Shown here: piece by piece, positions 3,001 to 62,479 of the stretch
How the letters are laid out: each line of letters opens with the position of its first letter
How positions within the stretch are numbered: position 1 is the stretch's first letter
IMG/VR virus record: IMGVR_UViG_3300026101_000001
Span: 19,407-83,406 of that record
Strand: one strand, 5' to 3'
Length of the DNA stretch: 64,000 bases
Source of the DNA: a virus
Taxonomy: Duplodnaviria; Caudoviricetes
Notes under the pieces: model-generated
Seen by the model: only the letters and a program-made list of their open reading frames with translations
Told to the model about the DNA's origin: nothing
Databases searched by the model: none
Translations under genes and position numbers: made by a program

Positions 3001-3261
3001 CGCATTCTTTTGGTTCTCACTTAAGATTTTGCGCTGGGTGTTAACTTCATTCTTAGCGTTCTGGGCGAGTTCAGAGCGCCCCTGTGGGGTGTCTTTAATA
3101 GCCTTAATGTTGGCTTGAAGCTGTTGACTCGCGGCTTGTGTGACCCGCTCTAGCTTTTCAAACTCGCGAGTTAGTTCCTCGATTACCTTTTTGGATTTAG
3201 GATCGACGGTAAAATTAAGTAAGGTATTTCTAATTGTATTGGATGCAGTGCTGCCGGCCAT
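1..3261 (-). CDS. Tail tape measure protein (TP901-type core); runs off window start, missing from ORF track
   Basis: ATG at 3261 (MAGSTASNTIRNTLLNF...), frame open where checked incl. window edge; TMP core 'KTKFTATDVADAAITLGQAGL...LNLDKLALGLQYSGNLAAQSNVTFEETVSALGAMANSGIRAGSTLGTGLRQ'; follows tail chaperones. Confidence 0.9.
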   Translation of the reverse strand, partial: MAGSTASNTIRNTLLNFTVDPKSKKVIEELTREFEKLERVTQAASQQLQANIKAIKDTPQGRSELAQNAKNEVNTQRKILSENQKNARALLDQIALTLGKGLNPQQQQQLVKGLNQAFGEITGRFTKQAQAQAKKQAKDLADYYDLQFRKNPTVPKGSQLYKSRVNTLNESELRTGIQRQKLLRSGAQSALNDAIRLGDTSLEKKAQNALKKLESGLVAAEERLKKFTEASKKAEVAQDTQARTVRRTLKSYNDDEFRLNPTVAKGQKVKASQISTLNRTQLEDAIARNKVYENAARKALKSSLAPETRNKTLENNAGKALRELEESTKLAKARLKEFADAAAEAKRAEKAAQKAQRPSTQVTEQQRVARRIEQIRQSQTNQRLDGGAQLFRNQGQLLRNYAVMGAGVGGLATSATFSTELDRQFKQLQSIVNLTNEEMEELSKNLIDVSEKTKFTATDVADAAITLGQAGLGQNDIQNAIEGVTLFATAVGSDLKSAVDLATSTLGVFNKDSSQMINIVDKMTTAVNSSKLNLDKLALGLQYSGNLAAQSNVTFEETVSALGAMANSGIRAGSTLGTGLRQIIISLQKPSESFTEIVHNLGLSMSDLDITTHGLIPVMKTLAESGFTVRDAMESMEVRAASAYGAFANNISVAEDLSEQMRIGGSAARANDTQMEALANQLDRLGSISKSIVYESMEPLLDTITKLTEKTADFLSVVRDLGPILSALAVPASILGGVLATRSVLRLGAGLLGGVDMLTGGKGKGSTISRLAKVATGRGLGTAAGFAARAIPGVGLATAVGTAGVYGYQYLDGRARANDRVDSTQAALNRGTSETKVYEDQLKKVGSAIDTLILKQNDLTNNESLQREIRRLNDEFRQQGLYIDDSIDSYDKLISKMKEFEDTTRDGVGYLQNQNRNNFVDNSEAKLNELFSIGFFDSSERRLLAQEKGTDVSVGSGKTATQRGRFASRGNVYRSLIDTALPNFGDDLASINELIRNINPQEAGAYGRAQEARTQTQALQSQLFNILNQSPQELDSLMKQFGLSGDARDKAEEYINNLAQEMLNRANTLLEVENNQKQYDSLDPSIK

Positions 3262-3280
3262 CGTCAATTTCCCCTAATTG

Positions 3281-3652
3281 TTACCCAAAAACGGCTCTTG
3301 CTCGGGCCTCAGCTTCTATTTCATCTTTTGGTACCGTGCTCGTAGTTTTACGTCTGGGCTTGCCTGAACCACTTTCTTTTTTACCGAAGATAGTCCCTGC
3401 GGCATTCAATAACGTCACATACTCTTGGGTCATTGTGACAGTCTTTAAGCCAAGTGTTAGCTTGGTTTTAACTTTGATATCTTGGTTACTATGCGACCAA
3501 AATATCTTCTGTAGCTGGCTGGGTACCGTTTCGAAAACAAAACACAACTGCTCTTCAAACGACAGTTTTAGGTACCAAGAATTGAAGACCTCTAAGTGGT
3601 CTGCTTCTTCTTCATTCGTTGCTTGGCTCTTTGTAGAGCCTTCATAAAAAAA
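3281..3652 (-). CDS. Tail chaperone -1 frameshift extension (gpGT-like T part)
   Basis: -1 frame is open from the T-TTT-TTT site to the stop at 3281 (YEGSTKSQATNEEEADHLEVFNSWYLKLSFEEQLCFVF...). Confidence 0.8.
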   Translation of the reverse strand, partial: FFYEGSTKSQATNEEEADHLEVFNSWYLKLSFEEQLCFVFETVPSQLQKIFWSHSNQDIKVKTKLTLGLKTVTMTQEYVTLLNAAGTIFGKKESGSGKPRRKTTSTVPKDEIEAEARARAVFG

Positions 3653-3939
3653 GTCTCAACGTGCTCCGATACCCATTCAAGCAAGTCCAGTATTTGGTCT
3701 GGGTCTGCCTTCATTGTATTAATATCGAAATTCTTGGTTATTCGGCCCGTCTCATTTCTTTCAGATAGGAGTTCAGTAATTACACTCGCTCGAACGTCGG
3801 AATTTAAGAGGATTTGTTCGAGTTCTTCCGCATTTCTAAAGTACCCTGTGATGGTATTGAGTAGCGCAAAACTCATGAAAACTTCTTTATCTTCGCCGTT
3901 AACGCTGATGTTAAAGGTTACAGAAGGGTTATCACTCAT
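3592..3939 (-). CDS. Tail assembly chaperone (lambda gpG-like)
   Basis: Between tail tube and TMP; ATG at 3939 after start motif; slippery site near 3' end. Confidence 0.8.
   Translation of the reverse strand: MSDNPSVTFNISVNGEDKEVFMSFALLNTITGYFRNAEELEQILLNSDVRASVITELLSERNETGRITKNFDINTMKADPDQILDLLEWVSEHVETFFMKALQRAKQRMKKKQTT
3646..3652 (-). other. Programmed -1 ribosomal frameshift slippery heptamer T TTT TTT
   Basis: ACT TTT TTT ATG in the G frame; -1 slip joins the G and T ORFs. Confidence 0.8.
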
Positions 3940-3952
3940 CGTCAATTTCCTT

Positions 3953-3976
3953 AAAAAAGGCCTCCGAAGAGGCCTT
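3953..3976 (-). terminator. Intrinsic terminator after tail tube gene
   Basis: AAGGCCTC-TTCG-GAGGCCTT followed by T run on minus strand. Confidence 0.8.
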
Positions 3977-4001: not shown

Positions 4002-4832
4002 TTACGACAATACGCTTTCTACTGAGTCATGAAACAACTTACCAGAGGTACCTTTGAAAGGTGCATAGTAAGTATCGGAAGGTGTAACTTTAAGTGGCGT
4101 AAACTCAAATGGTGTATTACCGAAGTTGTCGGTACCAAATGCCATAGTAAGACCTGAAGAAACACGCATCTTAGGAATAAGAAGTGTGATCCACTTACCG
4201 TTAGCTAGCTGGCCTTGAACCTTAGCGGCAAAGTCTCGGTCAACATCCGTTGAGCCCACATCAAGTACCGTTACTAGAGATACGTATGCGCCAGCCGGAA
4301 CTTCCCAAGCCATAGTGCTGTCAGGTACTGACACTTCGATAGTAGCGGTTGCTGCTGTACCCTCTGTAAGCCCTGAAACATTTGTTACGGTACCTAAAAC
4401 AATATTTTCTGAGATAGGGTCGCGAACACTAACCCAGCTACCTACCTCAATATCCTGTCCTGTACCATCATTGAGTTCTAGAGATACCGCACCTGATGAG
4501 AAAGAAGCTGCAGTCTTAACTACGTGAGCATCACCTTCAGGAGATACCAACTCCCCACCGTCTAGACCCAACGCGTAAGCGAGGTTCTTTTCGGTGTATT
4601 CGTACATTTCGAATGTGCCTCGAGTCGTGGCACCAGTTGTTAGTGTGAAAACAACATCGTTAGTTCGGCCTTGGGTAAGGTCAGAACGTTCCTTGGTTGC
4701 TTCTACTGTGAAATTCTTAACTAGGCCCACAGAGTGTTCTTCTGGGTTTAGTTTATAGAGGTCTTCTGGGTTACCAATCATTACAGTGGCAGTACCCAAC
4801 ATAAAATCAGTTGTTTTAGCTTCACCAGCCAT
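4002..4832 (-). CDS. Major tail (tube) protein
   Basis: Position before chaperones/TMP; 'FMLGTATVMIG...GLVKNFTVEAT...PKMRVSSGLTMAFGTDNFGNTPFEFTPL' typical of siphoviral tail tube. Confidence 0.8.
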   Translation of the reverse strand: MAGEAKTTDFMLGTATVMIGNPEDLYKLNPEEHSVGLVKNFTVEATKERSDLTQGRTNDVVFTLTTGATTRGTFEMYEYTEKNLAYALGLDGGELVSPEGDAHVVKTAASFSSGAVSLELNDGTGQDIEVGSWVSVRDPISENIVLGTVTNVSGLTEGTAATATIEVSVPDSTMAWEVPAGAYVSLVTVLDVGSTDVDRDFAAKVQGQLANGKWITLLIPKMRVSSGLTMAFGTDNFGNTPFEFTPLKVTPSDTYYAPFKGTSGKLFHDSVESVLS

Positions 4833-4887
4833 CGTCAATCTCCAAATTTTAGGTTATTATTGATACCTTGCTGAAGGAGGATGAAAC

Positions 4888-7049: not shown

Positions 7050-7732
7050 GCGTCCTCACCCGTGAATGGGTCTGTTCGGCTCACAAACTCAAGTAGTGGA
7101 GATTGAGGGAATTCAGCTACGGACTCAAACGTTAATTTGTGAGCCCAGTACTGAGAGGTAATAGAGTCCTGCACGGATTTTATATCGATATTTGATAGTC
7201 GAGACTTCTTAGTGTCGTCAATTTCATTAGACTTTAGAGTTTTCAGTCCTAACGCAGGGAGGTGGCGCACAGCTTCATGTAGCAAAATTAACTTGTTGAT
7301 ACGAGCGTTTGTATCCTCAAGTAGGCCTTGGCCAAGTTCATTTACTAGCTCATTGAACGAGTAAATAAAATCAATCTCACTATCAGGGAGTTCTTCTTCG
7401 TATAGCCCGATAAGGGTTCTTAGATTCGAAGGTGTGGATGTAAACATAAAATCCATATGAACCCGAACAATATCCGTATAGATACGTTGGCGATTTTCGC
7501 TCGTGAACTTAACCGTCAACTTAAAAAAGCTCAAGATATCACTGCTGCTGACTTTCAGGATATCTTGAGGGATGCTGTAATCAGCATCAAAAGGTACATC
7601 CACCGAATGTACCTCAACGCCCTCTTGGTCCTTGAGGGAGACACTTACGGTCCCAAAGTCCGGCAAATAGGTGTAGTCACCTATTTGAAACTCGGTCAGC
7701 ATTAACATTTCGTTATTTGGGACGCTTAACAT
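7046..7732 (-). CDS. Putative head-tail adaptor protein
   Basis: Synteny two genes after capsid. Confidence 0.45.
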   Translation of the reverse strand: MLSVPNNEMLMLTEFQIGDYTYLPDFGTVSVSLKDQEGVEVHSVDVPFDADYSIPQDILKVSSSDILSFFKLTVKFTSENRQRIYTDIVRVHMDFMFTSTPSNLRTLIGLYEEELPDSEIDFIYSFNELVNELGQGLLEDTNARINKLILLHEAVRHLPALGLKTLKSNEIDDTKKSRLSNIDIKSVQDSITSQYWAHKLTFESVAEFPQSPLLEFVSRTDPFTGEDA

Positions 7733-8172: not shown

Positions 8173-9378
8173 TTAGGCCGTGGTATCGAAGATTACGCGA
8201 GTATCACCGTAAACTAGGCGATAACCTGAGTTCTCAGTCTTCACGTAAGTAATCGACTGGTTCTTGATTGCTGTCTCAGACTCAGACAGTACAGAACCAG
8301 CTTCGATAAGTTCTTCCAGCGTGTCGGCCTTTGAATAACAAATCAGCTTACCAGTTGGGGCTGAGCTTGAAATATGGAAGTTAACACCGCTTAAGAAGTC
8401 CATGGCCAGAGCCACGCGAGGACCACCGTTCTCCTGAAGAATTTCAGAAGTAGACTTACCGTTAGGTTGAGTTGGTAAGAACATTAGGAACAGTTCTAAC
8501 CACATATCGTAGTTACCTACGATAGTATCAACCGGTACGCCTTTACGCGCACGTTGGGCCAAGAAGTCAGCTAATGCTACGTAGTTACCTTTAAGACCTT
8601 TAGCCGCATCCCAATCTTTATAATTAGAAGCGGGGACCACTTCTGCAGCTTCGTGAACACCATCACCGTTAATCAATAGCGTGGTTGCCATCTTCACTTT
8701 GCTGATTTCTTTGTTACGCGCAATACGGGCCGCGTATGGTGTAAGGATATCTAGGCTCACACGACGTTCGAATTCGTATGAGGTACGAATACCTGAACCA
8801 TGCTTGAAGAACTTAACCGACTTATCAGAGCTTTTGATAGTCTGCATCGGAATGTTAGCAAGTTCCGCGATAGGCGAAGTATTTAACTGGCCTTGGTCGT
8901 CAAAAATTGCGGTGGTAATAAGCTCATTACCAGTGATAGTACGTGTCTGTGCCACCATAGGGGCCGTTGATTCGTACATATCTTGGCGCGTATTCCACTG
9001 AAGCATATCATCGATAACTTCTGGGAAAAGTGCGCGAGAGCCTGGGCGTGCACTGAAAGTGTCCGCTGCCGCTTGAAGGGTAATACCTTGCTCAAACGCG
9101 TTTTTGAACGGGAGGTTCAACTCTACGATAGCGGCTTGGTAGCCGGTCATAAAGTTACCGTTATCCAAACGGAAGTTTTTACCAGCCTTTTCATCATTCG
9201 ACGCACGAACGTCAACTGCTAGGTTTAGGTAATCACGAACGTTAATACCGTATTGTTTTGCTGCTTGTACCAGCTTTACACCAGCGCGAATTGAATCGTC
9301 GCTGTGTTCGCTATCGATACCCGCAAGAACGTCTTTAAGCGGGGCGCGTTTAATCTGACTAAGATTTGCTGCTTGCAT
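8173..9378 (-). CDS. Major capsid protein
   Basis: 401 aa after protease and decoration genes; highly-expressed codon pattern; HK97-like size and position. Confidence 0.8.
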   Translation of the reverse strand: MQAANLSQIKRAPLKDVLAGIDSEHSDDSIRAGVKLVQAAKQYGINVRDYLNLAVDVRASNDEKAGKNFRLDNGNFMTGYQAAIVELNLPFKNAFEQGITLQAAADTFSARPGSRALFPEVIDDMLQWNTRQDMYESTAPMVAQTRTITGNELITTAIFDDQGQLNTSPIAELANIPMQTIKSSDKSVKFFKHGSGIRTSYEFERRVSLDILTPYAARIARNKEISKVKMATTLLINGDGVHEAAEVVPASNYKDWDAAKGLKGNYVALADFLAQRARKGVPVDTIVGNYDMWLELFLMFLPTQPNGKSTSEILQENGGPRVALAMDFLSGVNFHISSSAPTGKLICYSKADTLEELIEAGSVLSESETAIKNQSITYVKTENSGYRLVYGDTRVIFDTTA

Positions 9379-9420
9379 CGTCAATCTCCAAATTTTTATT
9401 TGTGGTGCGAATCTTCCGAA

Positions 9421-9824: not shown

Positions 9825-10991
9825 TTATCGATTAGAAACAAACGCACTGTTATGCGCGGCAGTAAGCACCAGAACGTCGTCAGCTCCCGGTGTATCCGCA
9901 CCTTTGCCAACACCACCCCTTGGGATTGCTGCCAGTTTAATTTGAGCTTGTTTTAACAGCTCAATTTTCTCGTCAGCGCTGGCGTCTTCAGCCAACGTCA
10001 AACCCGCTGCAACCGCAGCCAGTTTTAGTTGTTCATCGAACACGCCGACAATTTTGTTCGCCGTTTCAAGTTGCGCTTGAGCGGCTGAAAGATCAGATTG
10101 AAGTTTGGTCTCAGAACCATTTTCAATCTTCGTATTTAGTTCTTCTACTTGTCCTTTCAGCGCGGCAACTTCCGACTGAGAAGCGGTAAGCGCTGCCTCT
10201 GCCGATTCGAGTTTAACTTCTAGCTTGCCGTTAGCTGCGGACAACGTAGAAACTTGGTTTGTTAATGCTGATAAATCCATAGTTTCACCTGTTGTTTCAC
10301 TTTGAGTTGGGGAGCAAGTCATATAACTGTACTGTACGGCTTCAGGAGAACTTGAAGCGGCAAGCTGGTTATATGCGTCTTTGCCCAGACGTTGCTTGGC
10401 AGAGCCAAGTATCTTCGGTTTATTACTCGCGCCTTTGTTCACGAGTGATAATTCTTTCCAAGCACGGAGGTCGGTTAAGCGAAGGTGGGTTCCGTTCTCA
10501 CCGATTCGATGACCGTTATCACATTCACGAAACCAGAAACTCATTTCGTTGCCTTCGGCCATGTAGTCGAAACCACATTCAGAACAGTACGCGTGATTGG
10601 GAGCTGCCCCGACAGAAACCTCATCTAGAATAGAAAGGTCAATATCTCTGGCGTAAGGGCCTTCAGCATCGACATAGAAAAGAACGTTTAAGTCCATGTG
10701 CCCTTCATCGGCGCTATAGGTATCTGCGGCAAACACCTTACCTACAGGGAGCATCTGGCCATTGTGCATGACCTGAATAGGGACACTTTCTTCTTTGTAA
10801 TACGCCGCCATCTGTGACAGAAAGCCTTCTGTCATTTGTGCGCCATGATAGGCTGTGCTTGGTTGATTGATTGGACGAGTAGATGCCGCAACGCTCTCAT
10901 ACGCTGCAATCTGCGAAAAGTCTATTTCATCACCAGCGGCTGCGGTGATAAGCGATTTGATACGCTCAGTGAGGGTTAGCCGTTTAGCCAT
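9825..10991 (-). CDS. Prohead protease / scaffold
   Basis: 'QVMHNGQMLPVGKV', 'DEVSVG', 'ELSLVNKGA' protease-like motifs plus C-terminal coiled-coil. Confidence 0.7.
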   Translation of the reverse strand: MAKRLTLTERIKSLITAAAGDEIDFSQIAAYESVAASTRPINQPSTAYHGAQMTEGFLSQMAAYYKEESVPIQVMHNGQMLPVGKVFAADTYSADEGHMDLNVLFYVDAEGPYARDIDLSILDEVSVGAAPNHAYCSECGFDYMAEGNEMSFWFRECDNGHRIGENGTHLRLTDLRAWKELSLVNKGASNKPKILGSAKQRLGKDAYNQLAASSSPEAVQYSYMTCSPTQSETTGETMDLSALTNQVSTLSAANGKLEVKLESAEAALTASQSEVAALKGQVEELNTKIENGSETKLQSDLSAAQAQLETANKIVGVFDEQLKLAAVAAGLTLAEDASADEKIELLKQAQIKLAAIPRGGVGKGADTPGADDVLVLTAAHNSAFVSNR

Positions 10992-11066
10992 CGTCAATTT
11001 CCATCCAAATTTTCGATTATCTTAGGGCTTTTCAATCGCGTTGCCAAGCCCGATTAAAAATTAACC

Positions 11067-12527
11067 TTAAGACTGGTTAGCGTTAGACTTCGCACTTTTG
11101 TCTGAAGCGCGACTAACAGAACGTCCTTGCGGGTCAGAATTAGGGCTTACTTTTTCTGCTTCTACTTCCATAGCGCCGCCAATAAACCCCGTTCCACTTA
11201 GCTCAGCTACCGAGTCCGGTCTAATGCGACGGTACATGGCAATATGGTAATCATCGTCGGTTATCAACCCATCACTTAGGTCGGTTCGCAAGCGGTTTGA
11301 CTTCAAGTTCAATTGGGCCTCTAGCTCAAGCTCCGAACGCAAATCAATATTAGGGAATCTGACAATAACTCGACTCTCGGAGCCTTGCATACGTAAAGCC
11401 ATCGTAAGCATGCTGCCTAGGATTTCTCCGATAGGCTCATTCAAACTATCGGCAGCTTTGGCAAACAAGTTCGCTTCAACCGTCGCGGTATTTACACCCG
11501 ATTCACCCCGACCAAGTACCGTGGCCATCGTCTTTAACCCTGCTTGGTTTTGGGCGTTAAGCGTATCAATCACTTCCTGAATTTTAATACCTGTTGCGGG
11601 GTTCTTTTCATTAAGCATTGAAACTTCAGCACTGTCGGTGTGAACCATCGCTTGGTCTGGACGCAACGAAGCAAACGCGCTTCCAATATCTTGGCGGCGT
11701 TGAGAAATATAGGTTCTTAGTTTTTGCGGGTCTACTTTAACGTCAGCCGGAGCATTTTTCACCAAGACTTCTTCAAGTACCTTGATAGCGATTCGCGGGA
11801 ACCCTGTAACTTGCATGATTCGATACAAGTCATTAATCACCTGTTGCCTTGCTGCCATGGTATTAATTGCACTAACGAAGGGGCTATGGCCGTAAGCTTC
11901 AATAGGTGATTTTCGGTACCAAGCTACGAAGAAAGAAGGGATATCCATTTTAATTGGGTCCCCGCCCCCTTGGTCTTGCCATGGCACCATTTTCCCAGGC
12001 TCTTTTTCTTGCCATCGAATACTGGCCATATCGATATTGCGAAGCTCAGTTAATTGAAGTTGATCCCCAAATACCGTTTCACAGCCTATACCACCTCGGG
12101 CTAATAGCATGTAGCGGAATTCTTCTGATAGTTCTCGCAGAGTCTTAGGTCTTAAGTAACCTTTAGAGTAGTCGCGGCGGGTCTCTAAGGCTTCAATAAG
12201 TTCATTAACTATCTTGGCACCATCGCGGTCAATCGCCCCGTCGGGGTCTTTTACAACGATATAAGGGATAGAGCTCCCCGCCGTAGTTAGATATGCGCCT
12301 AATGCCGCTGAGGCATCAGGGTCGGACTTAACAAGCTTCATAATGAGAGTTTGTGAGTTATCCGAAACTCGACTTGAATAGATATCTTCTAGGTGTTCCC
12401 GATAATCTGGGAGCGATAGGACTTCTGTGTTGTTCTCTGCGTTATAGGTCGCAGTTTGTGTACTCCCTTTCGGCTTAAACCGATTAGGCACAATTACCTT
12501 GAGCTTGCTAAGTATTGTTCCGGCCAT
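11067..12527 (-). CDS. Portal protein
   Basis: 486 aa directly after TerL; 'YRKSPIEAYGHSPFVSAINT' portal-like segment. Confidence 0.8.
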   Translation of the reverse strand: MAGTILSKLKVIVPNRFKPKGSTQTATYNAENNTEVLSLPDYREHLEDIYSSRVSDNSQTLIMKLVKSDPDASAALGAYLTTAGSSIPYIVVKDPDGAIDRDGAKIVNELIEALETRRDYSKGYLRPKTLRELSEEFRYMLLARGGIGCETVFGDQLQLTELRNIDMASIRWQEKEPGKMVPWQDQGGGDPIKMDIPSFFVAWYRKSPIEAYGHSPFVSAINTMAARQQVINDLYRIMQVTGFPRIAIKVLEEVLVKNAPADVKVDPQKLRTYISQRRQDIGSAFASLRPDQAMVHTDSAEVSMLNEKNPATGIKIQEVIDTLNAQNQAGLKTMATVLGRGESGVNTATVEANLFAKAADSLNEPIGEILGSMLTMALRMQGSESRVIVRFPNIDLRSELELEAQLNLKSNRLRTDLSDGLITDDDYHIAMYRRIRPDSVAELSGTGFIGGAMEVEAEKVSPNSDPQGRSVSRASDKSAKSNANQS

Positions 12528-53269: not shown

Positions 53270-56200
53270 ATGGCTAACCAAGTAGAACAACCGTTTTACC
53301 TGACACTTTTTACGAACTCCACCGGAGTGCTCACCAAAGAGCTACGAATGGAGCATGGTAAAATTGTAAGTGATGCACCTAAGATGGTGACAGGTACAGC
53401 AAAACGAGTGCAGCTAACACTCTCACAGTTACCCGATTTTATAAAAAGCCTAGAGCCTAACCAGTGTTTTACCCCTGGCGTTATGGATACGGACCACGAG
53501 TTTGTAGAGGTCCTAACCAGTAACGAGTTTGAGCGCCGTGGCTATGAATATCCAGTGCACGTAGATGAAACCGGTGTGTATGGCACACGTTCTTCGAAAT
53601 CTATGATCACAAAAGGTCCAAGTCTAATCCTATTCGATTATGATAAAGACGAGCACGCTAAGCTAAAAATTACCAATCCTGAAGATTTCCTAACGCATCT
53701 GAATAGTGCGGTTCCAGAATTAGAACTAAACAACACGGACTATATCAGAACTTACAGTACTTCAACGTCATTGTTTGACAAAGAAACCAATAAAGTAATT
53801 CGCCCCGCAGATGGCTTCCATATTTATATGCTCGTTGATAAAGGGGAAGATATTGCTCGGTTTGGTAAAATGCTTGAGAAGCGCTGCTGGATGGCGGGTT
53901 TAGGCCACATTAAAGTAAGTGCCAGCGGTGGACGACTACCAAGAACGATTTTTGATACCTCAGTTTTCCAGCCGGAACGTCTATGTTTCGAAGCCGGTGC
54001 CTTCATCAAACTAAAAGAATCGTTCTACCAGAAGTTACCAAAAGGTGAAATTAACCGCAGAGCTAAACGCTCTTTAAAAACCACACTGCTTAAGGATTAC
54101 ACCCCAACTCAAGATAAAGAATTCCGTCGTGTGGTTGAGCTGGAAAAGCAATCTGAGGACGTTATAAACCGTGTCTCTGAATTCAGAGAAATCAAAGTTC
54201 AGCGAATGGTGAACACCACGCATTACACTCAGATGCCGCTTTCTCGTGACGAGGCCATGAAGATTGTTAAAGCGCATGAGAACAAAATACTTCACCCCGC
54301 AGATATTCTTGAATTTGAGGATGGTCGTGTTACCAGTGTGCTTGAAGCGTTTTTAAATCCAACGCTTTACGATGGTGCTCAGTTGCAAGACCCACTACGT
54401 CCTGAGAAAGGTTATTCAAAAGCTAAGTTCTACGCTAACGCTGGGCGCTATGGTGATTACAATCCTACGATTCACTCGTTTGTAGAAGGTGAGCGAAACT
54501 TTGAGCTGCGTGAGTCTATCGAAACCTTTATGAGTAAGACCGAGGACACCGAATCTAGACTGGAAGAATTCGACAACAAGGCAATGGTTATAGATCAGCG
54601 CTATCTACCGGAGCTAAGACTACGCCCAGGTATTACACTTGTTAAAAGTGAGAAAGGTACTGGTAAGACTTATATGCTGAAGCAACAGGTACAAGACTTC
54701 GATGGTCGAGTTATCGCTATCAGCCAGCTAATCTCGTTAGTTAACTCACTCTCTAAGCAGTTCAATCTTGCAGACTATAACGAAATAGAAAGCGAACGGT
54801 TGCACTCCTTACGTATGCAGAAGCGCTTAGGTATCTGTCTTAACTCGATATACAAGCTACAAGGCCAGAACTACGACATTGTGATCATGGATGAGGTTTG
54901 TCAGCTTGTGCGTGCGATAAAAGCGACAACCGTTGATAAGCCGGCAGCATGCTTAAAAGTCTTACGTGAGATTATTGCGGGAGCAAAGTTCGTAGTCTGT
55001 ATGGACGCCGACTTGAACAAAGAGTTCGTGGACCTAATGAGAGACCCGCAATTTGGTATCCTCCCTGAAGACCGCACGATTAACGTTATCGTTAATAAGT
55101 ACCGTCCGGCAAAGGAACAACAGCGACAAGTGACCTTGTACCAAGATACCGATGGTAAAGGGGATACTTCAGCGTTCGTAGAAGCTTTGATGTGTGAGGC
55201 TAAAACTACCGGCCTATTCTACGCTTCGAATTCTAAAGTGGATGTGCTTAAGAAAGCGGCCACGATTATTGAGGAAATGGGTGGGGATAGTCAGCTAGAG
55301 CATGAACACTTCATGACGGAGATTAATGGTCGTCGTGTTATCACCATAACGAGTAACAATTCTCAGACACCAGATGTACAAGCCTTTATTCGTGATTTGA
55401 ACGGCAACTTAAAAGATGATGATATTTTTATGTCTTCGCCTTCTATGGGTACCGGCCACTCAATCGATGCGACTGAAATGGGTGCGAAGTTTAAAAAGAC
55501 GTTCGCGTTTTTCACAAAGATGGCGGGTAATTTACCTTCGGATTGTTTGCAGCATATGAGCCGCGTTCGTGAGTGTACCGACTACCATATTATGTACCTT
55601 GATAATGCGAGACGTTACCCTACCGCGCCTTTAGAAATCGTTCAAAAAGAGATATACGGAAATCGTAACACCATAGATAACAAACTAAGTGTGCAGTTTA
55701 TTTCTGAATATGATTATGCAACCGAACGTTTGAAAATAAATGACCATGGTTGGTCGGACTGGTATGGCCAACTCAAGAGTTTTGAAAATAATAAACTCAA
55801 TCACTTTTCTAAAAATTTGATAAACGCTTTAGAAAATGAAGGTTACAACATCAACACGCTTTATACGCTGGCCTCTGAAGAAGGCTACAATTTGAAAATG
55901 TTGATGGATGAACTTACAGATCAGATTCGAGAAGTTGAAAAACAAAAGCTTAGGGATACTGAGCTGTTAACGGACGAAGAATTTGAAATTTTAGATAACC
56001 AGACTTTGAAAAACGCAGAGGAACAACGACAGCTACTTAAGAAACGTCAAGCGCGACTCTTTGGCCTCGAGGCTGGGGATGAACTGAACGATGTAGTTAC
56101 TATGTCAACACAGGCTCTCAATGGTAGACGCAAGGGTTTGATGCTGGGTGCTAACAATGACGACCTGTTCCTTATCGATATGATTAATCGTTTCGATACT

Positions 56201-56773
56201 AAGCGACACGATAAAGATAAAACGGCGTTTGCAGATCACCAAGGCTTGGGCCGTGGCTTCTTTTACCATTTAGGTGTGATATTTCTAAATGATATCCCCA
56301 CCTACGATGGCCGAGAAATAACAGATTTAGAAAAAGACCGCGCTTTTGATTTTCTATTAGCCCATGCAAGGGATTTAGAAATCCTTCAAGGTATCCGCAT
56401 TCCTTTATGTGATACCGACAAGAAGCGTCATGAGTTCGTTCGCCGCGTTCTTACTTCGTTTGGTATGAAATATCGTAGAGAAAAGAAACGTGTAGGTGTC
56501 CGTTCAGTTTATAAATATTATTTAGATGATGAACGTTTTAATCGCTGGGTTGAGGATGTGAGAAGGGCTAAAGAGCTCTCCCACAGTACGATGTTCACAG
56601 GTCTTGAAGAAGTGCCAGGAAATTTGAAAGCCTATGTATTTCAAGCTTTGGCTGGGTCTCCGCAAGTTTCTGAATTACATCCATATATTTCTAAATTACA
56701 TCCAGAAATTCAAAACCGACTTATCAACTTACTTAATAATAAATTGTTTGTCGTTACTACTAACGTTGCATAA
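53270..56773 (+). CDS. AEP primase fused to SF2 (origin-binding protein-like) helicase
   Basis: AEP 'LFDYD', 'GFHIY', 'FDTS'; SF2 'SEKGTGKT', 'MDEV', 'MDAD', 'SPSMGTG', 'QHMSRVR'. Confidence 0.8.
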   Translation: MANQVEQPFYLTLFTNSTGVLTKELRMEHGKIVSDAPKMVTGTAKRVQLTLSQLPDFIKSLEPNQCFTPGVMDTDHEFVEVLTSNEFERRGYEYPVHVDETGVYGTRSSKSMITKGPSLILFDYDKDEHAKLKITNPEDFLTHLNSAVPELELNNTDYIRTYSTSTSLFDKETNKVIRPADGFHIYMLVDKGEDIARFGKMLEKRCWMAGLGHIKVSASGGRLPRTIFDTSVFQPERLCFEAGAFIKLKESFYQKLPKGEINRRAKRSLKTTLLKDYTPTQDKEFRRVVELEKQSEDVINRVSEFREIKVQRMVNTTHYTQMPLSRDEAMKIVKAHENKILHPADILEFEDGRVTSVLEAFLNPTLYDGAQLQDPLRPEKGYSKAKFYANAGRYGDYNPTIHSFVEGERNFELRESIETFMSKTEDTESRLEEFDNKAMVIDQRYLPELRLRPGITLVKSEKGTGKTYMLKQQVQDFDGRVIAISQLISLVNSLSKQFNLADYNEIESERLHSLRMQKRLGICLNSIYKLQGQNYDIVIMDEVCQLVRAIKATTVDKPAACLKVLREIIAGAKFVVCMDADLNKEFVDLMRDPQFGILPEDRTINVIVNKYRPAKEQQRQVTLYQDTDGKGDTSAFVEALMCEAKTTGLFYASNSKVDVLKKAATIIEEMGGDSQLEHEHFMTEINGRRVITITSNNSQTPDVQAFIRDLNGNLKDDDIFMSSPSMGTGHSIDATEMGAKFKKTFAFFTKMAGNLPSDCLQHMSRVRECTDYHIMYLDNARRYPTAPLEIVQKEIYGNRNTIDNKLSVQFISEYDYATERLKINDHGWSDWYGQLKSFENNKLNHFSKNLINALENEGYNINTLYTLASEEGYNLKMLMDELTDQIREVEKQKLRDTELLTDEEFEILDNQTLKNAEEQRQLLKKRQARLFGLEAGDELNDVVTMSTQALNGRRKGLMLGANNDDLFLIDMINRFDTKRHDKDKTAFADHQGLGRGFFYHLGVIFLNDIPTYDGREITDLEKDRAFDFLLAHARDLEILQGIRIPLCDTDKKRHEFVRRVLTSFGMKYRREKKRVGVRSVYKYYLDDERFNRWVEDVRRAKELSHSTMFTGLEEVPGNLKAYVFQALAGSPQVSELHPYISKLHPEIQNRLINLLNNKLFVVTTNVA

Positions 56774-56866
56774 CGCTGTATTATTAAGCATAATACCTAT
56801 TAATTAATATAATAATTATAAAGGTTCCACTAGGAGCCTTTTTAAATATGAATTGACGAGTTGAGC

Positions 56867-57373
56867 ATGGATAACGCCACTTTTGGAATTGACGGTGTAA
56901 GCCTTAAATATAATTCTAAAAAATTACAATTTGAAAAACCTATCCATTGCTGGCTTTGGGTGGTCACCTATTGTCGTAAAAATAAATTCCGAATCTTAAC
57001 TAACAAACCGTTAAGCAGGGAGATTTATGAGCAACTTCGTGCGGTTATTTCTCCTAAGAAAGTCAGCTCAAGAGAATTATACGATGCGATAGGCTTTCAC
57101 GTTAATTCTATAAAATACCTCAATCGTATTCGTACTGGTGCGCAGCGCTTTAACCTTTGGGGAAAGCCTGACGGTAGAGTAACCGAGTCCGAAGCGGACC
57201 ATGCTCGTAAGAGAATGGTTGAACTACATTCTATGTACTTACGCTCTCGACGTAAGAACAAGAAGCAAGGGATTATCATAAATCAGAAAGTGGGACGCGG
57301 CACACGCCAGTCAACATCAGATGATAAAGGTGATAAACCTAAAAGAGTATTAACTCTAAATAAAACAAAATAA
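56867..57373 (+). CDS. ProQ/FinO-family RNA chaperone
   Basis: 'KPLSREIYEQL...SSRELYDAIGFHVNSIKYLNRIRTGAQRFNLWGKPDGRVTESEADHARKRM' parallels ProQ 'PLKIGI..DL...Y....GA.R.DL.G...G.....EHA'; basic tail. Confidence 0.8.
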   Translation: MDNATFGIDGVSLKYNSKKLQFEKPIHCWLWVVTYCRKNKFRILTNKPLSREIYEQLRAVISPKKVSSRELYDAIGFHVNSIKYLNRIRTGAQRFNLWGKPDGRVTESEADHARKRMVELHSMYLRSRRKNKKQGIIINQKVGRGTRQSTSDDKGDKPKRVLTLNKTK

Positions 57374-57398
57374 GTTTTATACAATTAGGAAATTGACG

Positions 57399-57806
57399 AT
57401 GCAAAACACTGGTAAACCCTCCGAAGATATCTTCGAAGAGAATATGAAAGCGCTGGGCGCTCATGTATATCGCTTCGAAGACCATGCTGATGTAAACAAG
57501 TCTCGCGTTCGCAAACGTATCGTTTCATCAAAACCCTCAGACTATCTTGTTACCGAAAAAGGTTTAACGGCCTACGCGGAAGTAAAAAGTATTGCTGAAA
57601 GTTCCCGCTTTGATTTCTCTCGAATTGAGAAACGTCAATGGCGCGAAGCAACCAAGGTAACCAAAGCTGGGGGCCTCTACTACTTCTACCTCCATTTCAT
57701 AAGTATTGATGGGTGGTTTAAAGTCCCAGCATCCCTAATTCTAAGCTGGCCTAAGAAGTCTATGCGTTTTGAAGAACTCACGCAGTTCCAATTTACGTGG
57801 GGATAA
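57399..57806 (+). CDS. PD-(D/E)xK nuclease, Holliday junction resolvase-like
   Basis: 'SEDIF', 'PSDY', 'AEVKS'. Confidence 0.75.
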   Translation: MQNTGKPSEDIFEENMKALGAHVYRFEDHADVNKSRVRKRIVSSKPSDYLVTEKGLTAYAEVKSIAESSRFDFSRIEKRQWREATKVTKAGGLYYFYLHFISIDGWFKVPASLILSWPKKSMRFEELTQFQFTWG

Positions 57807-57810
57807 CCTT

Positions 57811-58185
57811 ATGCTTGAGGTTACTTGTGGATGGGCCTTACACGCTGAAACTGAGATTAATACTTTAATTTGGCGGAATGCTAGGCTGGCAAAGCTGGTT
57901 TTGTTGTGGCGAAGAGGACATATAACAGACCAGCATTTTATACCCCGAATTGTTCAACCTTGGGAACCAGATGAAGAATCCGAAGAGTTTGAGGACTTCA
58001 ATGAACTTAGGAACCCTAATGCGGCTTACCGAGTTTTATGCTTTGCTGTGCTGGGACACGCTGTTAGTGTCTATCCAGATATTAAAAGATTTGTACTCGA
58101 ATACTGGCCGTATTTTAGCCCAGATTTAAACTGGAAAATTAGAGTTAACTTTACTGAGGGCCAAGTCCCCTCAATTATTATTTAG
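57811..58185 (+). CDS. Hypothetical protein
   Basis: Operon position. Confidence 0.55.
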   Translation: MLEVTCGWALHAETEINTLIWRNARLAKLVLLWRRGHITDQHFIPRIVQPWEPDEESEEFEDFNELRNPNAAYRVLCFAVLGHAVSVYPDIKRFVLEYWPYFSPDLNWKIRVNFTEGQVPSIII

Positions 58186-58195
58186 GAAATTGACG

Positions 58196-58684
58196 ATGCA
58201 AAAAACAGTTTTAGACCCTTGTTCAGGGTCTCGTATGTGGTGGTTGGATAAAGCTCACCCCTCCGCAGTATATGGTGATATTAGAAACGAGACTATAACT
58301 GTTACAGATAGAACACATAAATCGGATGGGACTCGAACTGTAAAAATTGAACCCGACACTTTAATGGATTTCAGAGAGCTCCCTTTTGCGGATAACACTT
58401 TCAACGTTGTAGCTTTCGACCCACCTCATTTAGAGAGAGCAGGTCCTAAAAGTTGGCTTGCCGCTAAATACGGTAAATTAGGTAATGATTGGAGAGAAGA
58501 TTTGAACAAAGGCTTCAATGAGTGCTTGAGAGTTTTGAAACCTGGGGGAACGCTTGTTTTCAAATGGAATGAAACTCAAATAAAACTCAAAGAGATACTT
58601 CCTCTATGTCCAGTTAAACCACTATTTGGGCAAGTTTCAGGCCGTTCGGGATTAACTCACTTTTTAGTTTTTATGAAACCATAG
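58196..58684 (+). CDS. Small SAM-dependent DNA methyltransferase
   Basis: 'LDPCSGSRM', 'FDPPHL', 'RVLKPGGTLVFKW'. Confidence 0.85.
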   Translation: MQKTVLDPCSGSRMWWLDKAHPSAVYGDIRNETITVTDRTHKSDGTRTVKIEPDTLMDFRELPFADNTFNVVAFDPPHLERAGPKSWLAAKYGKLGNDWREDLNKGFNECLRVLKPGGTLVFKWNETQIKLKEILPLCPVKPLFGQVSGRSGLTHFLVFMKP

Positions 58685-58711
58685 CATAAACTTTTATTTA
58701 GGAAATTGACG

Positions 58712-59737
58712 ATGCAAATGTTACCAATCGAATCGCTAAACGATTTAATTAAACTCCCCTCTTTTGTTCAGACGTTAGGTGACCCGCACCTAGCACGTAA
58801 ATTCAATACCGGCGTACCAACACACCGCAAAGGTGAGCGCGAAGAAATGGTGAAAGATATTTTTGCCGGTATTGTAAATGCGCCAGGGTATAAGCTTCAC
58901 GTTTGTATGGGTGACTTATTTGATAAGTTCCGCGTTCCTGAAGAAGATATTTTATTTGCGGCCGACGTTTATCGTCTCGCGGCCAGCACTTACCGTGACC
59001 GTCAGTTCGTGATAATTCGCGGCAACCATGACGCTTCTAGAGATACGCAGTTCAAAAGCTCTTTTGATGTTTTTACACAGCTTGTAGCTCACGTTCCGAA
59101 TATTCACGTAGTTGCAGAAAGCGCACTCAAACTAACCATTGAGAAAGAAAATTTTGTTTTCTACCCGTGGCACCCGTTTAAAACAGCTAAAGAAATTGCG
59201 GCAGAGATTAAGCCACCGGTTGGATACTTCGCGTTTGGCCATTGGGACATTCTTGCTTTTAGTGAAGATAGCTCAGCGACGGATAACTTGATCCCGTTTG
59301 AAGAAATGCAAACAGCACTTGCGGTTATCACTGGCCACTATCATACACCGCGTATTTTTATGGAAGGTGATACGCCAGTCTGGGTTACCGGCTCTATGCA
59401 ACCCTACTCGCATGCCGAGGACCCAAATAACCAGCTCTACATAACGCTCTCGCTTCAAGAAGCAACCGCGGCCTTAGAAGCTGACCCTGATAAGTTCAAA
59501 AACATGAACCTTCGAATCACGCTTCTACCAACGGAGGCCCCGATTGCTGAAGTGGATTGTTTGAGCCTGACTTTCAAACGTGTGTCGGAAAATAAAGACG
59601 ACGAACTGGAAGTTAATCTAGATAGCTTCGACTTAGAAGGCATCTTCAAATCGACAATGGCGGAACACAACGTTTCAACTGAAACTACAAATCAACTTTG
59701 GGGCCAGTTTATGGACCTAAGCGCGGAGGCTGAATAA
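58712..59737 (+). CDS. SbcD/Mre11-like metallophosphoesterase
   Basis: 'GDPHL', 'GDLFD', 'GNHD', 'GHWD', 'GHYH'. Confidence 0.9.
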   Translation: MQMLPIESLNDLIKLPSFVQTLGDPHLARKFNTGVPTHRKGEREEMVKDIFAGIVNAPGYKLHVCMGDLFDKFRVPEEDILFAADVYRLAASTYRDRQFVIIRGNHDASRDTQFKSSFDVFTQLVAHVPNIHVVAESALKLTIEKENFVFYPWHPFKTAKEIAAEIKPPVGYFAFGHWDILAFSEDSSATDNLIPFEEMQTALAVITGHYHTPRIFMEGDTPVWVTGSMQPYSHAEDPNNQLYITLSLQEATAALEADPDKFKNMNLRITLLPTEAPIAEVDCLSLTFKRVSENKDDELEVNLDSFDLEGIFKSTMAEHNVSTETTNQLWGQFMDLSAEAE

Positions 59738-61761: not shown

Positions 61762-61808
61762 CTTTTGTAGGCTGGTGAAAGCCAGCCTTTGATTTGGAAA
61801 TTGATTTT

Positions 61809-62030
61809 ATGAAAGAGAAACTCCGCTTTAAAGTCCCCTACTGTGAATACTGTCATGAGTATGCAACGGTAACTCAGCAAGCACCAATTTCGGGATCTTT
61901 CGAGAATAGGACCAAAAATACTGATGAAGTTATTTTTGAGAGCGTCTGTAGTGACCATGTTAGAAACCACCACGATGCCCTAACCTTTACCTTTTATAAC
62001 CTCGTTTATTCTAAGGGGTGGAGACCATGA
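61809..62030 (+). CDS. Small CxxC..CxxH zinc-finger protein, copy 1
   Basis: MKEKLRFKVPYCEYCHEYA...CSDH. Confidence 0.6.
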   Translation: MKEKLRFKVPYCEYCHEYATVTQQAPISGSFENRTKNTDEVIFESVCSDHVRNHHDALTFTFYNLVYSKGWRP

Positions 62031-62197
62031 AAGAGAAACCACGCTTTAAAGTCCCCTACTGTGAATACTGTCATGAGTATGCGACGGGGAAACAACTCGC
62101 TCCGCCCGCTTACGTAACTGATGGACCACTTGCAATGCAGCAAAAGAGAAAATATGAACTCGTGTGTAAAAAACATGCGACGAATCCGCTCCCTTAG
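62027..62197 (+). CDS. Small CxxC..CxxH zinc-finger protein, copy 2 (not in ORF track)
   Basis: MKEKPRFKVPYCEYCHEYA...CKKH; GGAG RBS; 58/61 nt identical 5' end. Confidence 0.6.
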   Translation: MKEKPRFKVPYCEYCHEYATGKQLAPPAYVTDGPLAMQQKRKYELVCKKHATNPLP

Positions 62198-62230
62198 TAA
62201 GCTAACTTTTAAAATTTGGAAATTGACGAT

Positions 62231-62479
62231 ATGACGAACTCAGCTAATGATAACTATCCTGTTGCTATTAATGTGACTACTAGCCTAAGAACCGTACCAC
62301 TCACTAAATATTGTGAACTGTCTGGTGAAGACATAGAAACGGTACGACAGAGAATTAAACGCGGACACTGGGTAAAAGGCGTACATGCTATTAAGCCACC
62401 CCATATTCGCGAACTTTGGATTGACTTAGAAGCGGTAGAACAATGGATAAGAAATGGGGGCAGCTCCCTCGCGGGGTAA
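62231..62479 (+). CDS. xis: Excisionase (winged-helix Xis)
   Basis: 'VPLTKYCELSGEDIETVRQRIKRGHW...LWIDLEAVEQW', overlapping int start. Confidence 0.85.
   Translation: MTNSANDNYPVAINVTTSLRTVPLTKYCELSGEDIETVRQRIKRGHWVKGVHAIKPPHIRELWIDLEAVEQWIRNGGSSLAG

Follow-up and report, generated by a model that had tools for sequence, protein, structure and literature searches.

A 13-14 nt ribosome-binding cassette opens about 40% of the genes of an Alteromonas-type prophage

The sequence GGARATTGACGATG is a 13-14 nt ribosome-binding cassette that opens ~40% of the genes of an ~83-kb Alteromonas-type prophage. It is over-represented, co-oriented with its genes and fixed in its geometry to the ATG; its Shine-Dalgarno (SD) part and its 9-mer are separable; and it is conserved across a small clade of marine phages, with an 85%-identical provirus (G001), a 59%-identical complete phage (G002) and Pseudoalteromonas phage KB12-38 each carrying versions of their own. 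We propose, with moderate confidence, that the motif is a standardised translation-initiation element acting on mRNA that also serves as a recombination junction, i.e. a start-associated sequence. The window analysed here is a stretch of 64,000 nucleotides, bases 19407-83406 of an 83,406-bp contig, and coordinates refer to the window unless indicated.

A composite motif at gene starts

The window contains 41 exact copies of ATTGACGA, while shuffled sequences averaged 2.36 and never exceeded 6 (0 of 100 shuffles reached 41). At ≤2 mismatches GGARATTGACGAT yielded 42 matches versus 2.5 expected, and the contig total is 46 motif copies. Gene starts account for 39 of the 41 exact copies, and all 39 are oriented with their own gene, as claimed; the other two are strays within coding sequence, a number that chance predicts. 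There are four variant sites beyond the exact copies. The strand of the copies is that of the local genes, minus below 14.35 kb and plus above. Every coordinate in the initial annotation was recovered, including the variants at 19481, 45027, 48176 and 61809, and its statement that int lacks the motif held. The same was true upstream of the XRE gene, although a copy lies nearby in codons 4-8. The 13-mer occurs once in E. coli K-12, and the 14-mer at most three times per genome across 401 Pseudomonadota genomes.

The motif combines a Shine-Dalgarno GGA(A/G), 8 nt from the ATG, with a separable 9-mer, ATTGACGAT. At class 1 sites (n=38; 34 exact and 4 variant) the 9-mer occupies the spacer between SD and ATG, and the distance from motif end to ATG is 0-3 nt in all 38. 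At class 2 sites (n=5: terL, 17761, 25550, 40159 and the ProQ gene copy at 56848) a 9-mer without GGA lies immediately 5' of an independent SD, 8-21 nt before the start, showing that the 9-mer need not belong to the SD. Across early, replication and late operons, motif copies stand at the head of groups of translationally coupled genes. The sites are as follows.

3260-3272 (-): class 1; tape-measure gene, ATG 3261
3938-3950 (-): class 1; tail chaperone gene, terminator-like hairpin immediately before the motif
4831-4843 (-): class 1, GGAG form; tail tube gene
7214-7226 (-): stray copy within coding sequence, no start codon near
9377-9389 (-): class 1, GGAG form; major capsid gene
10990-11002 (-): class 1; 388-aa head gene in protease/scaffold position
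12526-12538 (-): class 1; portal gene, ATCGACGA in 85% relatives
14341-14353 (-): class 2; terL, 9-mer without GGA, then own SD (GAGG), GTG 14327
36826-36838 (-): stray copy in codons 4-8 of the XRE gene, missing from the G001 orthologue
14429-14441 (+): class 1; gene 14440-14928, first rightward gene
17761-17773 (+): class 2-like; early control region
18137-34567 (+): early accessory region; motifs preceded by GGGGGGAAnnTTCCCCCC-type hairpins and AATTAACT(T)
18172-18184 (+): class 1, AGGA form; gene 18186-18905, hairpin and AATTAACTT extension
19473-19485 (+): variant ATTGATGAT; gene 19481-19717
20026-20038 (+): class 1; gene 20037-20345
20921-20933 (+): class 1 with extension; gene 20934-21320
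21338-21350 (+): class 1, TGAG form; ATG 21352, recurrent homology breakpoint in close relatives
22203-22215 (+): class 1 with extension; gene 22217-22705
23546-23558 (+): class 1; small gene from 23557, hairpin before the motif
23694-23706 (+): class 1; gene 23705-24193, cassette missing in G001
24881-24893 (+): class 1; gene 24892-25311, motif within upstream ORF 24678-24899
25550-25562 (+): class 2; 9-mer, then AAGGAG, GTG 25576
26232-26244 (+): class 1 with hairpin and extension; additional gene here in G001, between two motif copies
26794-26806 (+): class 1; gene 26805-27704
27992-28004 (+): class 1 with hairpin and extension; gene 28006-28809
30232-30244 (+): class 1 with hairpin and extension; DUF3560 gene 30246-31631
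32482-32494 (+): class 1 with hairpin and extension; gene 32493-33524
33533-33545 (+): class 1; gene 33544-33990
34178-34190 (+): class 1; gene 34189-34539
34586-34598 (+): class 1 with hairpin and extension; gene 34597-35436
37063-37075 (+): class 1; gene 37076-38251, ATP-dependent DNA ligase
39454-39466 (+): class 1; gene 39465-40157, SF3-helicase-like fold
40159-40171 (+): class 2; HTH protein, ATG 40188, 9-mer 18 nt before the ATG
42453-42465 (+): class 1; gene 42464-43525, probable gp32-like SSB
43575-43587 (+): class 1; 5'-3' exonuclease gene, hairpin immediately before the motif
45015-45027 (+): variant GGAAATTGACTGA(TG); gene 45027-45545, within upstream gene 44423-45049
47269-47281 (+): class 1; gene 47280-48167, recombination exonuclease
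48168-48180 (+): variant GGAGATTGATGAT; gene 48176-48577, adjoins upstream stop codon
52600-52612 (+): class 1; MazG-like pyrophosphohydrolase gene
53259-53271 (+): class 1 core, GGA not adjacent (GGATTGA 6 nt upstream); ori-helicase gene 53270-56773
56848-56860 (+): class 2-like ATTGACGAG; ProQ/FinO gene, ATG 8 nt downstream
56867-57373 (+): ProQ/FinO-domain gene, RNA-binding candidate
57388-57400 (+): class 1; RecU-like resolvase gene
58185-58197 (+): class 1; left copy of a 25-nt direct repeat around methyltransferase cassette 58196-58684
58701-58713 (+): class 1; right copy of the 25-nt repeat, SbcD-like gene 58712-59737
61796-61808 (+): variant GGAAATTGATTTT; left end of a 400-nt segment missing in G001
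62218-62230 (+): class 1; right end of the 400-nt segment, gene 62231-62479, upstream of int

The initial annotation had described the upstream extension as frequent. The extension, AATTAACT(T), is real, but it was found at only ~10 of 43 sites, where it follows G/C hairpins and is confined to 18-35 kb. The composite of SD and 9-mer, the variants in relatives and the overlap with cassette exchange points were missing from that first reading.

Conservation in related phages

In 17 orthologous pairs with G001 the motif positions are 88-100% identical, except for one T/C position, while identity falls to 40-65% in the upstream flank, and the coding sequence downstream is also less conserved than the motif. 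This better conservation of the motif than of its flanks points to selection. This phage, G002 and KB12-38 share a GGA-to-ATG spacing of 8 nt, yet the 9-mer lies 2 nt further 3' in this phage; because the SD-ATG spacing is held while the 9-mer shifts, the two parts appear to be under separate constraints. The class 2 site of terL is kept in G001 and G002, and the 9-mer is conserved at the core genes for capsid, portal, tail tube and tape measure across phages with 59%-identical portal proteins. In KB12-38 only GGATTGAC is conserved and the palindromic character of the G001 form is lost; R-N-AUU is common to all versions. The motif was not found in more distant relatives.

Gene context, promoters and RNA pairing

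The gap upstream of class 1 genes exceeds 10 nt in 31 of 34 cases (median 57.5 nt), whereas among motif-less genes the gap has a median of 4 nt, and 29 of the 52 overlap or adjoin the upstream gene. This links the motif to fresh ribosome loading. The initial annotation had offered two options, translational control or a site that blocks elongation. The fixed ATG geometry, the association with fresh loading and the motifs inside upstream genes better support the former; the latter is weakened. That the motif acts on RNA rather than DNA we infer from its position only.

Pairing with 16S rRNA is possible for GGA(G) only and the other conserved positions cannot pair; with E. coli rrsH as a stand-in, there was no excess complementarity and the best duplex was no better than for shuffled motifs. 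The suggestion that the motif is the target of an sRNA was not supported: no sense transcript contains an antisense copy. Motif-bearing starts had the same SD strength and predicted accessibility as other starts, and in these computed values no gain in initiation from the 9-mer was seen.

Transcription initiation at the motif is unlikely to be the explanation. It would require a minimal, -10-only phage promoter (TAAAAT/TACAAT, with a phage factor helping) joined to a conserved initial transcribed sequence, such that transcripts start at or near the A of ATTGACGAT and the 9-mer forms the common 5' end of many mRNAs. A TAAAAT/TACAAT-like hexamer does lie 2 nt ahead of GGA, which places it 6 nt from the 9-mer, at about a third of sites (9-12 sites in each of this phage, G001 and G002), and the class 2 sites at terL and at genome positions 2085 and 14677 have the same hexamer-to-9-mer distance, so that class 1 and class 2 could be unified as short and long leaders. 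Many motifs also lie just 10-25 nt past terminator-like hairpins. Against this, the hexamer is missing at about half of the sites and its excess is modest (25 versus 19 in A/T-rich shuffles); no -35 element is present; and transcripts starting at the 9-mer would lack the conserved GGA. No sigma-70 -35/-10 promoter was detected at the cassettes, a region in which such promoter-like sites are depleted (16 versus 29.7 expected). The motifs at 24881 and 45015 lie within an upstream gene and that at 48168 adjoins a stop codon, leaving no room for a promoter at those sites. For a siphophage, six sites within a single late structural operon would be out of the ordinary, and the scanned genes revealed neither an RNA polymerase nor a sigma factor.

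Terminator-like sites number 45 versus 20.5 expected, and G/C hairpins of one family precede ~10 motifs. That many sites directly follow terminator-like hairpins is compatible with promoters, as is the presence of the hexamer. Near divergent control regions the motif copies are at ribosome-binding sites.

Motif copies and cassette exchange

Motif copies lie at the ends of insertions and deletions that distinguish relatives. A 25-nt repeat with the motif inside it stands on either side of the methyltransferase cassette, which is 70% nucleotide-identical to a gene at another G002 locus; three more insertions or deletions relative to G001 have motif copies as boundaries; and 9 of 22 internal homology breakpoints between close relatives fall no further than 20 nt from a motif. 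Being identical at many genes, the motif cassette may also serve as a crossover point for the gain, loss and transfer of single genes. The phage encodes recombination functions of its own (exonuclease, SSB-like, SbcCD-like and resolvase). The uniformity of the motif within the genome could owe much to homogenisation by recombination and not to a reader.

We consider it improbable that the motif is nothing but a recombination linker, a spacer without a reader in which an ordinary ribosome-binding site is kept uniform by recombination and by compatibility with a shared cassette pool. The boundaries just described, among them those of a cross-lineage cassette transfer, and the encoded recombination functions agree with such a role, as does the lack of a detectable effect on SD strength or accessibility. 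In its favour, too, structural genes of G001 mostly carry ATCGACGA, whereas its accessory cassettes have the ATTGACGA form found in this phage and resemble this phage more closely (78-83% versus 66-75%). A linker would not explain why the 9-mer is conserved at core genes that are not shuffled, between phages with 59%-identical portal proteins, or why it is kept at class 2 sites, outside the ribosome-binding site; moreover, 13-25 nt is short for efficient homologous exchange.

A precedent for a linker is found in the promoter-early stem-loop (PeSL) cassettes of T4-type phages (PMC2839356, PMC4122927), likewise short composite repeats with a stem-loop between small accessory genes, for which shuffling between copies has been invoked. 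Recombination between copies would similarly explain the repeat-bounded insertions, deletions and replacements among the relatives studied here. PeSL elements, however, carry strong sigma-70-like promoters, which were undetectable at the motif cassettes, and the unit repeated here is a ribosome-binding region that also precedes core structural and replication genes.

Comparison with known systems

The initial annotation compared the motif with the start-associated sequences (SAS) of Cluster K mycobacteriophages (PMC3203893, 2011; 2025 survey, PMC12699233), whose function is still unexplained, and the analogy proved apt. Both are asymmetric 13-nt repeats with an SD core and conserved bases beyond 16S pairing, placed a few nt upstream of the starts of a subset of genes in a single orientation, with ATG strongly preferred. 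About half of the SAS have an upstream extension of imperfect 17-bp inverted repeats; the extension in the prophage, at ~10 of 43 sites, occupies a comparable position but takes another form, a true G/C hairpin with AATTAACT(T). SAS are rare in the genomes of their hosts. K1 phages and the prophage both integrate in the host tmRNA gene. The consensus sequences differ (GGGATAGGAGCCC at ≤2 mismatches versus GGARATTGACGAT) and share only the SD-like GGA(G); the hosts are actinobacterial there and marine gammaproteobacterial here; and SAS number 11-19 and are confined to non-structural genes, whereas the 46 copies here extend to the tape measure, chaperone, tail tube, capsid, portal and terL genes. 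In the prophage the motif overlaps the ATG, its non-SD part is a 9-mer that can precede another SD, and its copies bound cassette insertions and deletions.

Stoperators of Cluster A phages are binding sites for the immunity repressor (L5 gp71) that act on elongating polymerase (PMC9283540). An equivalent site here, at which a DNA-binding protein of the phage would, depending on orientation, block the elongating RNA polymerase or modulate its progress and so silence the prophage, is quite improbable. The resemblance lies in the many asymmetric 13-mers (>20 in Cluster A, >40 here) that are spread genome-wide over short intergenic spaces and strictly co-oriented with transcription; in addition, the G001 form ATCGACGAT is a 4-1-4 palindrome, and class 2 sites show that the 9-mer is not needed as part of the SD. 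Stoperators, however, have no fixed distance to start codons, and a roadblock has no need of the near-invariant SD/ATG geometry seen here. The palindrome is lost in KB12-38, which keeps only GGATTGAC, and no copy overlaps the predicted early promoters (17.4-37.2 kb), where an operator would be expected by analogy. Nor do the repressor candidates follow the motif: the XRE (36526), RHH (4888) and HTH (39160/40188) proteins had no tblastn counterpart in G002 or KB12-38, both of which keep the core.

In T4, the phage factors RegA and RegB recognise sequences that overlap or border the SD/AUG of ~30 mRNAs (reviewed in PMC3014915). The RegA SELEX consensus, aaAAUUGUUAUGUAA, resembles GGAAAUUGACGAUG of this phage, a likeness that fails for the G002 and KB12-38 versions, and T4 RegA sites are loosely conserved whereas the motif is nearly invariant. 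No RegA (PF01818) or RegB (PF10715) homologue was found in the 83-kb contig at E ≤ 1. Cleavage of the motif by a host or phage endoribonuclease (RNase E-type before AUU, or RegB-like with S1), separating cistrons and inactivating or maturing mRNAs whose new 3' ends the upstream hairpins protect, is very unlikely: R-N-AUU in every version, hairpins just upstream of many sites and the precedent of GG*AGRAYARAA, the long SD-anchored motif that T4 RegB recognises with S1 at translation initiation regions (PMC3014915), are in its favour, but no RegB homologue was found in the prophage, an RNase E-type consensus is too information-poor to explain the conserved GAC(G)AT, and a cut between SD and AUG would inactivate the most-needed late mRNAs.

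Candidate readers and outlook

As a translation-initiation element, the motif would act on mRNA inside the ribosome-binding region, with GGA(A/G) held 8 nt from the ATG and the independent 9-nt element placed either between SD and ATG or 5' of a separate SD. The 9-mer would be read not by the 16S 3' tail but by some other factor, a phage protein or a host ribosome- or mRNA-binding component, which would so set the expression of ~45 genes together, and the same cassette would double as a crossover point for swapping single-gene cassettes.

Among the readers named in the initial annotation, the XRE, RHH and HTH proteins do not fit the distribution of the motif; the ProQ/FinO protein does. All four motif-bearing phages have it and the motif-less G003-G005 do not; it is the only RNA-binding candidate found whose distribution matches, and we offer it as a lead only. 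The correlation involves just two clades, with phylogeny as a confounder, and the RNA that FinO-domain proteins are known to bind is structured, unlike a linear 9-mer.

It is conceivable, if unlikely, that the 9-mer AUUGACGAU is an RNA operator within the ribosome-binding region of ~45 mRNAs through which a clade-specific phage factor switches early, replication and late translation together. If true, this would amount to a translational regulon spanning the whole phage, for which no counterpart has been described among temperate phages of Gram-negative bacteria, and it would provide the first mechanistic handle on start-associated sequences generally.

A motif at gene starts throughout the prophage

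The core of the motif, ATTGACGA, occurs 41 times in the window, against 2.36 on average and 6 at most in dinucleotide-preserving shuffles, and the 13-mer GGARATTGACGAT gives 42 matches with two or fewer mismatches where 2.5 are expected. The whole 83,406-bp contig, of which the window covers bases 19407-83406, holds 46 exact copies. Within the window, 34 exact copies abut an ATG, five lie slightly upstream of starts that have their own Shine-Dalgarno (SD) sequence, and two, the number that chance predicts, are strays within coding sequence: one at 7214-7226, the other at 36826-36838, where it covers codons 4-8 of the XRE gene. Each of four variant sites (19473, 45015, 48168 and 61796) also abuts an ATG. 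Every copy runs in the direction of the local genes, as the initial annotation had stated; its motif coordinates were all correct on checking.

A 32-bp direct repeat matching the ssrA (tmRNA) 3' end marks both ends of the prophage, at contig positions 97-128 and 83097 (window 63691-63722). The contig opens with ~96 nt from the end of the host ssrA gene. The integrase is encoded at:

62443-63681, integrase gene

One phage protein shares 98% identity with an entry named Alteromonas macleodii, making Alteromonas the likely host and, going by that name, probably A. macleodii. The same protein appears on 242 contigs, including many Tara contigs of ~80 kb.

Two arrangements of the motif

In class 1 (38 sites) the motif reads GGA(A/G)-ATTGACGAT, and the ATG overlaps its last AT or comes within 3 nt. 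In class 2 the 9-mer ATTGACGAT lacks a preceding GGA and is followed by TAA or TA, an independent SD (GAGG, AAGGAG and similar) and a start codon 8-21 nt downstream. The left part of the contig adds four class 2 sites to the five in the window:

14341, class 2 site of terL
17761, class 2 site
25550, class 2 site
40159, class 2 site
56848, class 2 site

This geometry indicates that the 9-mer is a distinct element, more than the spacer behind an SD. The TTG of the motif was rejected as the true start codon, since it lies 1 nt from GGA and its frame relative to the ATG varies between phages.

The GGA is preceded by an A/T-rich stretch, often TAAAAT or TACAAT and then TT. Among the small accessory genes at 18-35 kb, about ten motifs are preceded by a hairpin of one family, GGGGGGAAnnTTCCCCCC, and then AATTAACT(T); the hairpin family differs from phage to phage among relatives. 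At the AATTAACTT sites (window 18160-34582) the upstream extension includes TTAACTTT, which we take to resemble the 'epsilon' translational enhancer of T7 gene 10, UUAACUUUA. G/C hairpins between 18137 and 34567 (e.g. 19942-19959, 27952-27970 and 32447-32466) carry GAAC or GTTC in the loop region, presumably the consensus for Dnd phosphorothioation, and the phage encodes a DndB-like protein (29037-30188). Separately, a long A/T-rich perfect hairpin of 14 pairs with T runs on both sides (17459-17490) follows a primase-like gene and is likely a bidirectional terminator bordering the early control region.

Motif-bearing genes head translationally coupled groups

Genes were listed by a simple ORF-based procedure that returned about 100 genes and is imperfect, probably missing some small ones. 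On this list, class 1 genes are separated from the previous gene by a median of 57.5 nt (more than 10 nt in 31 of 34 cases), versus 4 nt for motif-less genes, 29 of 52 of which overlap or abut the gene upstream. The motif thus belongs to the cistron that opens each translationally coupled group, at which ribosomes have to load afresh. All modules are represented, in line with the earlier claim that early, replication and late genes are covered: the late genes for tape measure, chaperone, tail tube, capsid, the head protease/scaffold position, portal and terL; the first rightward gene and most accessory cassettes; and, for replication and recombination, ligase, exonucleases, the ori-helicase, resolvase and an SbcD-like gene. 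The motifs at 24881 and 45015 are embedded in the upstream ORF and that at 48168 begins directly past a stop codon, so that at these three sites there is no space for a separate promoter.

The motif in related phages

Relatives were gathered by portal protein similarity as a graded series in IMG/VR. Those with portals 95-100% identical have the same motif. G001, a provirus with an 85% identical portal, mixes ATCGACGA (21 copies) with ATTGACGA; the form with C at the variable T/C position is found mostly at structural genes and the T form mostly at accessory cassettes. In G002, a complete phage (portal 59%), the motif is GGATTGACGAT(A)TG with AATTAAACTAAAATT before it. In Pseudoalteromonas phage KB12-38 (portal 60%), 29 of the 83 annotated starts carry GGATTGA; the consensus there is GGATTGAC(A)NN-ATG, with the same AATTAAACTAAAAC extension. 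In these last two phages AATTAAACTAAAA(C/T)T stands in place of TTAACTTT. Window positions 53253-53271 read GGATTGAATTGACGATG, which looks like their GGATTGA form fused to the core of the present phage.

The distance from GGA to ATG is 8 nt in all four motif-bearing phages. The ATTGAC block, on the other hand, abuts GGA in G002 and KB12-38 and is shifted 3' by 2 nt in this phage and in G001; start spacing and presence of the 9-mer are therefore two separate constraints. Orthologous genes keep the position of the motif (portal, capsid, tail tube, chaperone, tape measure and terL). Comparison of 17 orthologous pairs with G001 gives 88-100% identity for the motif, the T/C position excepted, and 40-65% for the upstream flank (ungapped); the downstream coding sequence is also less conserved than the motif.

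The motif was absent from the two more distant genomes that were scanned: high-GC relative G004 had no comparably enriched 8-mer, and Acinetobacter phage EAb13 had six matches to GGA(N0-2)TTGAC and no enriched motif 8-mer. Other high-GC records like G004 and, by portal similarity, the lineage of Achromobacter JWF and Caulobacter Seuss also belong among the more distant relatives. EAb13 (OQ717042.1) has a different over-represented palindrome, with 8-mers containing CTGCAG present 16-31 times each against 1-2 expected. None of 401 Pseudomonadota genomes had more than three copies of the 14-mer. Matches to the G002-type 14-mer in viral contigs were mostly single chance matches among those listed.

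Candidate readers of the motif

Only the GGA(G) of the motif can pair with the 16S tail, and with E. coli rrsH standing in for the host's 16S rRNA, the best duplex anywhere in the molecule was no better than for shuffled motifs. The 9-mer is conserved all the same, which bears out the earlier statement that conservation extends beyond the SD. Because the 9-mer is separable and strongly conserved yet unable to pair with the 16S tail, we argue that the motif is more than a good SD; the 9-mer would be read by a further factor. Neither SD strength nor predicted openness of structure differs significantly between motif-bearing and other starts.

[quoted passage not shown] The XRE, RHH and HTH proteins, also put forward as readers, have tblastn counterparts in G001 and none in G002 or KB12-38, and were rejected on that ground. 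Few proteins are common to the four motif-bearing phages and absent (by tblastn) from G004 and EAb13. Besides a MazG-like enzyme, the ori-helicase, a tail protein and two unknowns, this set includes:

56867-57373, ProQ/FinO-domain protein (Pfam E = 7e-13)

The ProQ/FinO family is present in G001 and G002 and absent from the records G003-G005; as a reader of the motif this protein is a lead, drawn from its distribution in only two clades.

The two unknowns had no match in Pfam, PHROGs or the protein atlas:

39465-40157, 230 aa, no family match, limited to this phage group (model pLDDT 90)
42464-43525, 353 aa, N-terminal half (~130 aa) Q-rich and disordered, C-terminal domain with weak similarity to the T4 gp32 core

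The best structural matches of the first are SF3/D5-type helicase cores (Cch, NrS-1 and poxvirus E5; TM ~0.54). The second is probably an SSB, as it adjoins a 5'-3' exonuclease. Both were set aside as readers since they look replication-related. Homologues of the second, 81-85% identical, are filed under Tenacibaculum sp. KUL113/KUL118, in what look like mislabelled or contaminated assemblies.

Recombination at motif copies

Single-gene insertions and deletions relative to G001 have motif copies at their edges. A methyltransferase gene (58196-58684) is flanked on both sides by the 25-nt direct repeat TTATTTAGGAAATTGACGATGCAAA and is missing in G001, where one motif joins the same flanks. It is 70% nucleotide-identical to a gene at another locus of G002 (22148-22630), against ~40% protein identity for neighbouring genes, and is thus a single-gene cassette laterally transferred between divergent phages. 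A 400-nt segment between two motif copies (61809-62217) is likewise missing from G001, which for its part has an extra gene between two copies that correspond to the single copy at 26232 here. Ten of 56 alignment ends versus G001 fall no more than 25 nt from a motif; random positions would give 1.6, a null that is generous because breakpoints favour gene boundaries. Among closer relatives, the 22 internal breakpoints at 17.4-22.8 kb include nine no more than 20 nt from a motif and four at a G/C hairpin.

A role in recombination is thus directly visible. By analogy with the PeSLs of T4-type phages (PMC2839356, PMC4122927), it probably follows from the repetition of one cassette at many genes, and recombination between copies may help to keep them uniform.

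Discussion

The initial annotation had offered two readings, a translational control element or an elongation-blocking repressor site. We put at about even the chance that the motif is a translational cis-element within the mRNA's ribosome-binding region and that recombination is its second role. An mRNA element is favoured by the fixed geometry to the ATG, by the association with fresh ribosome loading, by copies that sit inside upstream genes and by the lack of promoter features. There is precedent in T4, where long motifs in translation initiation regions are recognised by phage factors: the SELEX consensus of RegA operators is aaAAUUGUUAUGUAA, and RegB/S1 sites read GG*AGRAYARAA (PMC3014915). 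No RegA or RegB homologue was found in this phage.

A promoter or initial-transcribed-sequence is an unlikely alternative. TTGACG was considered as a -35 element, and a conserved -10 downstream was not found; a -10-like hexamer 2 nt upstream of GGA occurs at only 9-12 sites per genome, and such hexamers number 25 overall against 19 expected for A/T-rich flanks, little above expectation. Sigma-70 promoter-like sites at 17.4-37.2 kb are depleted (16 versus 29.7 expected), with none at a cassette. We think it just as improbable that the motif is a pure linker: motif copies do border exchanged genes, and the 9-mer also stands apart from the SD-ATG spacer at class 2 sites. The repressor-site reading, a stoperator-like DNA site, fared worse than translational control and we regard it as quite unlikely. 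That the motif is an RNase site is very unlikely.

The closest known parallel comes from Cluster K mycobacteriophages, whose SAS/ESAS is a 13-bp repeat containing an SD core, located in one orientation 3-7 bp from mostly ATG starts and extended upstream by an inverted repeat at half of the sites (PMC3203893). That study gave no answer as to its function, nor had one appeared by 2025 (PMC12699233). In position the present motif is SAS-like; in sequence, host and distribution it falls outside the group. Unlike SAS, it also covers structural genes, is more numerous, has a separable non-SD part and overlaps the ATG. We found no report of it in the literature searched, including papers treating KB12-38; searches with motif strings returned only primers and unrelated matches.

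Start-associated sequences have been known since 2011, from Cluster K mycobacteriophages only. The second, independent instance described here is a stronger example (46 copies, structural genes, a separable 9-mer) and experimentally tractable, so the phenomenon is not a mycobacteriophage oddity. Its carriers are a clade of marine Alteromonas/Pseudoalteromonas temperate phages that recurs as ~80-kb contigs in Tara metagenomes, providing a Gram-negative system for testing start-associated sequences in which the T/C position, the 2-nt slide of the 9-mer and the class 2 sites are ready-made mutants. The motif also helps start-codon annotation in these phages, and it illustrates that a shared expression cassette can double as a joint for single-gene exchange.
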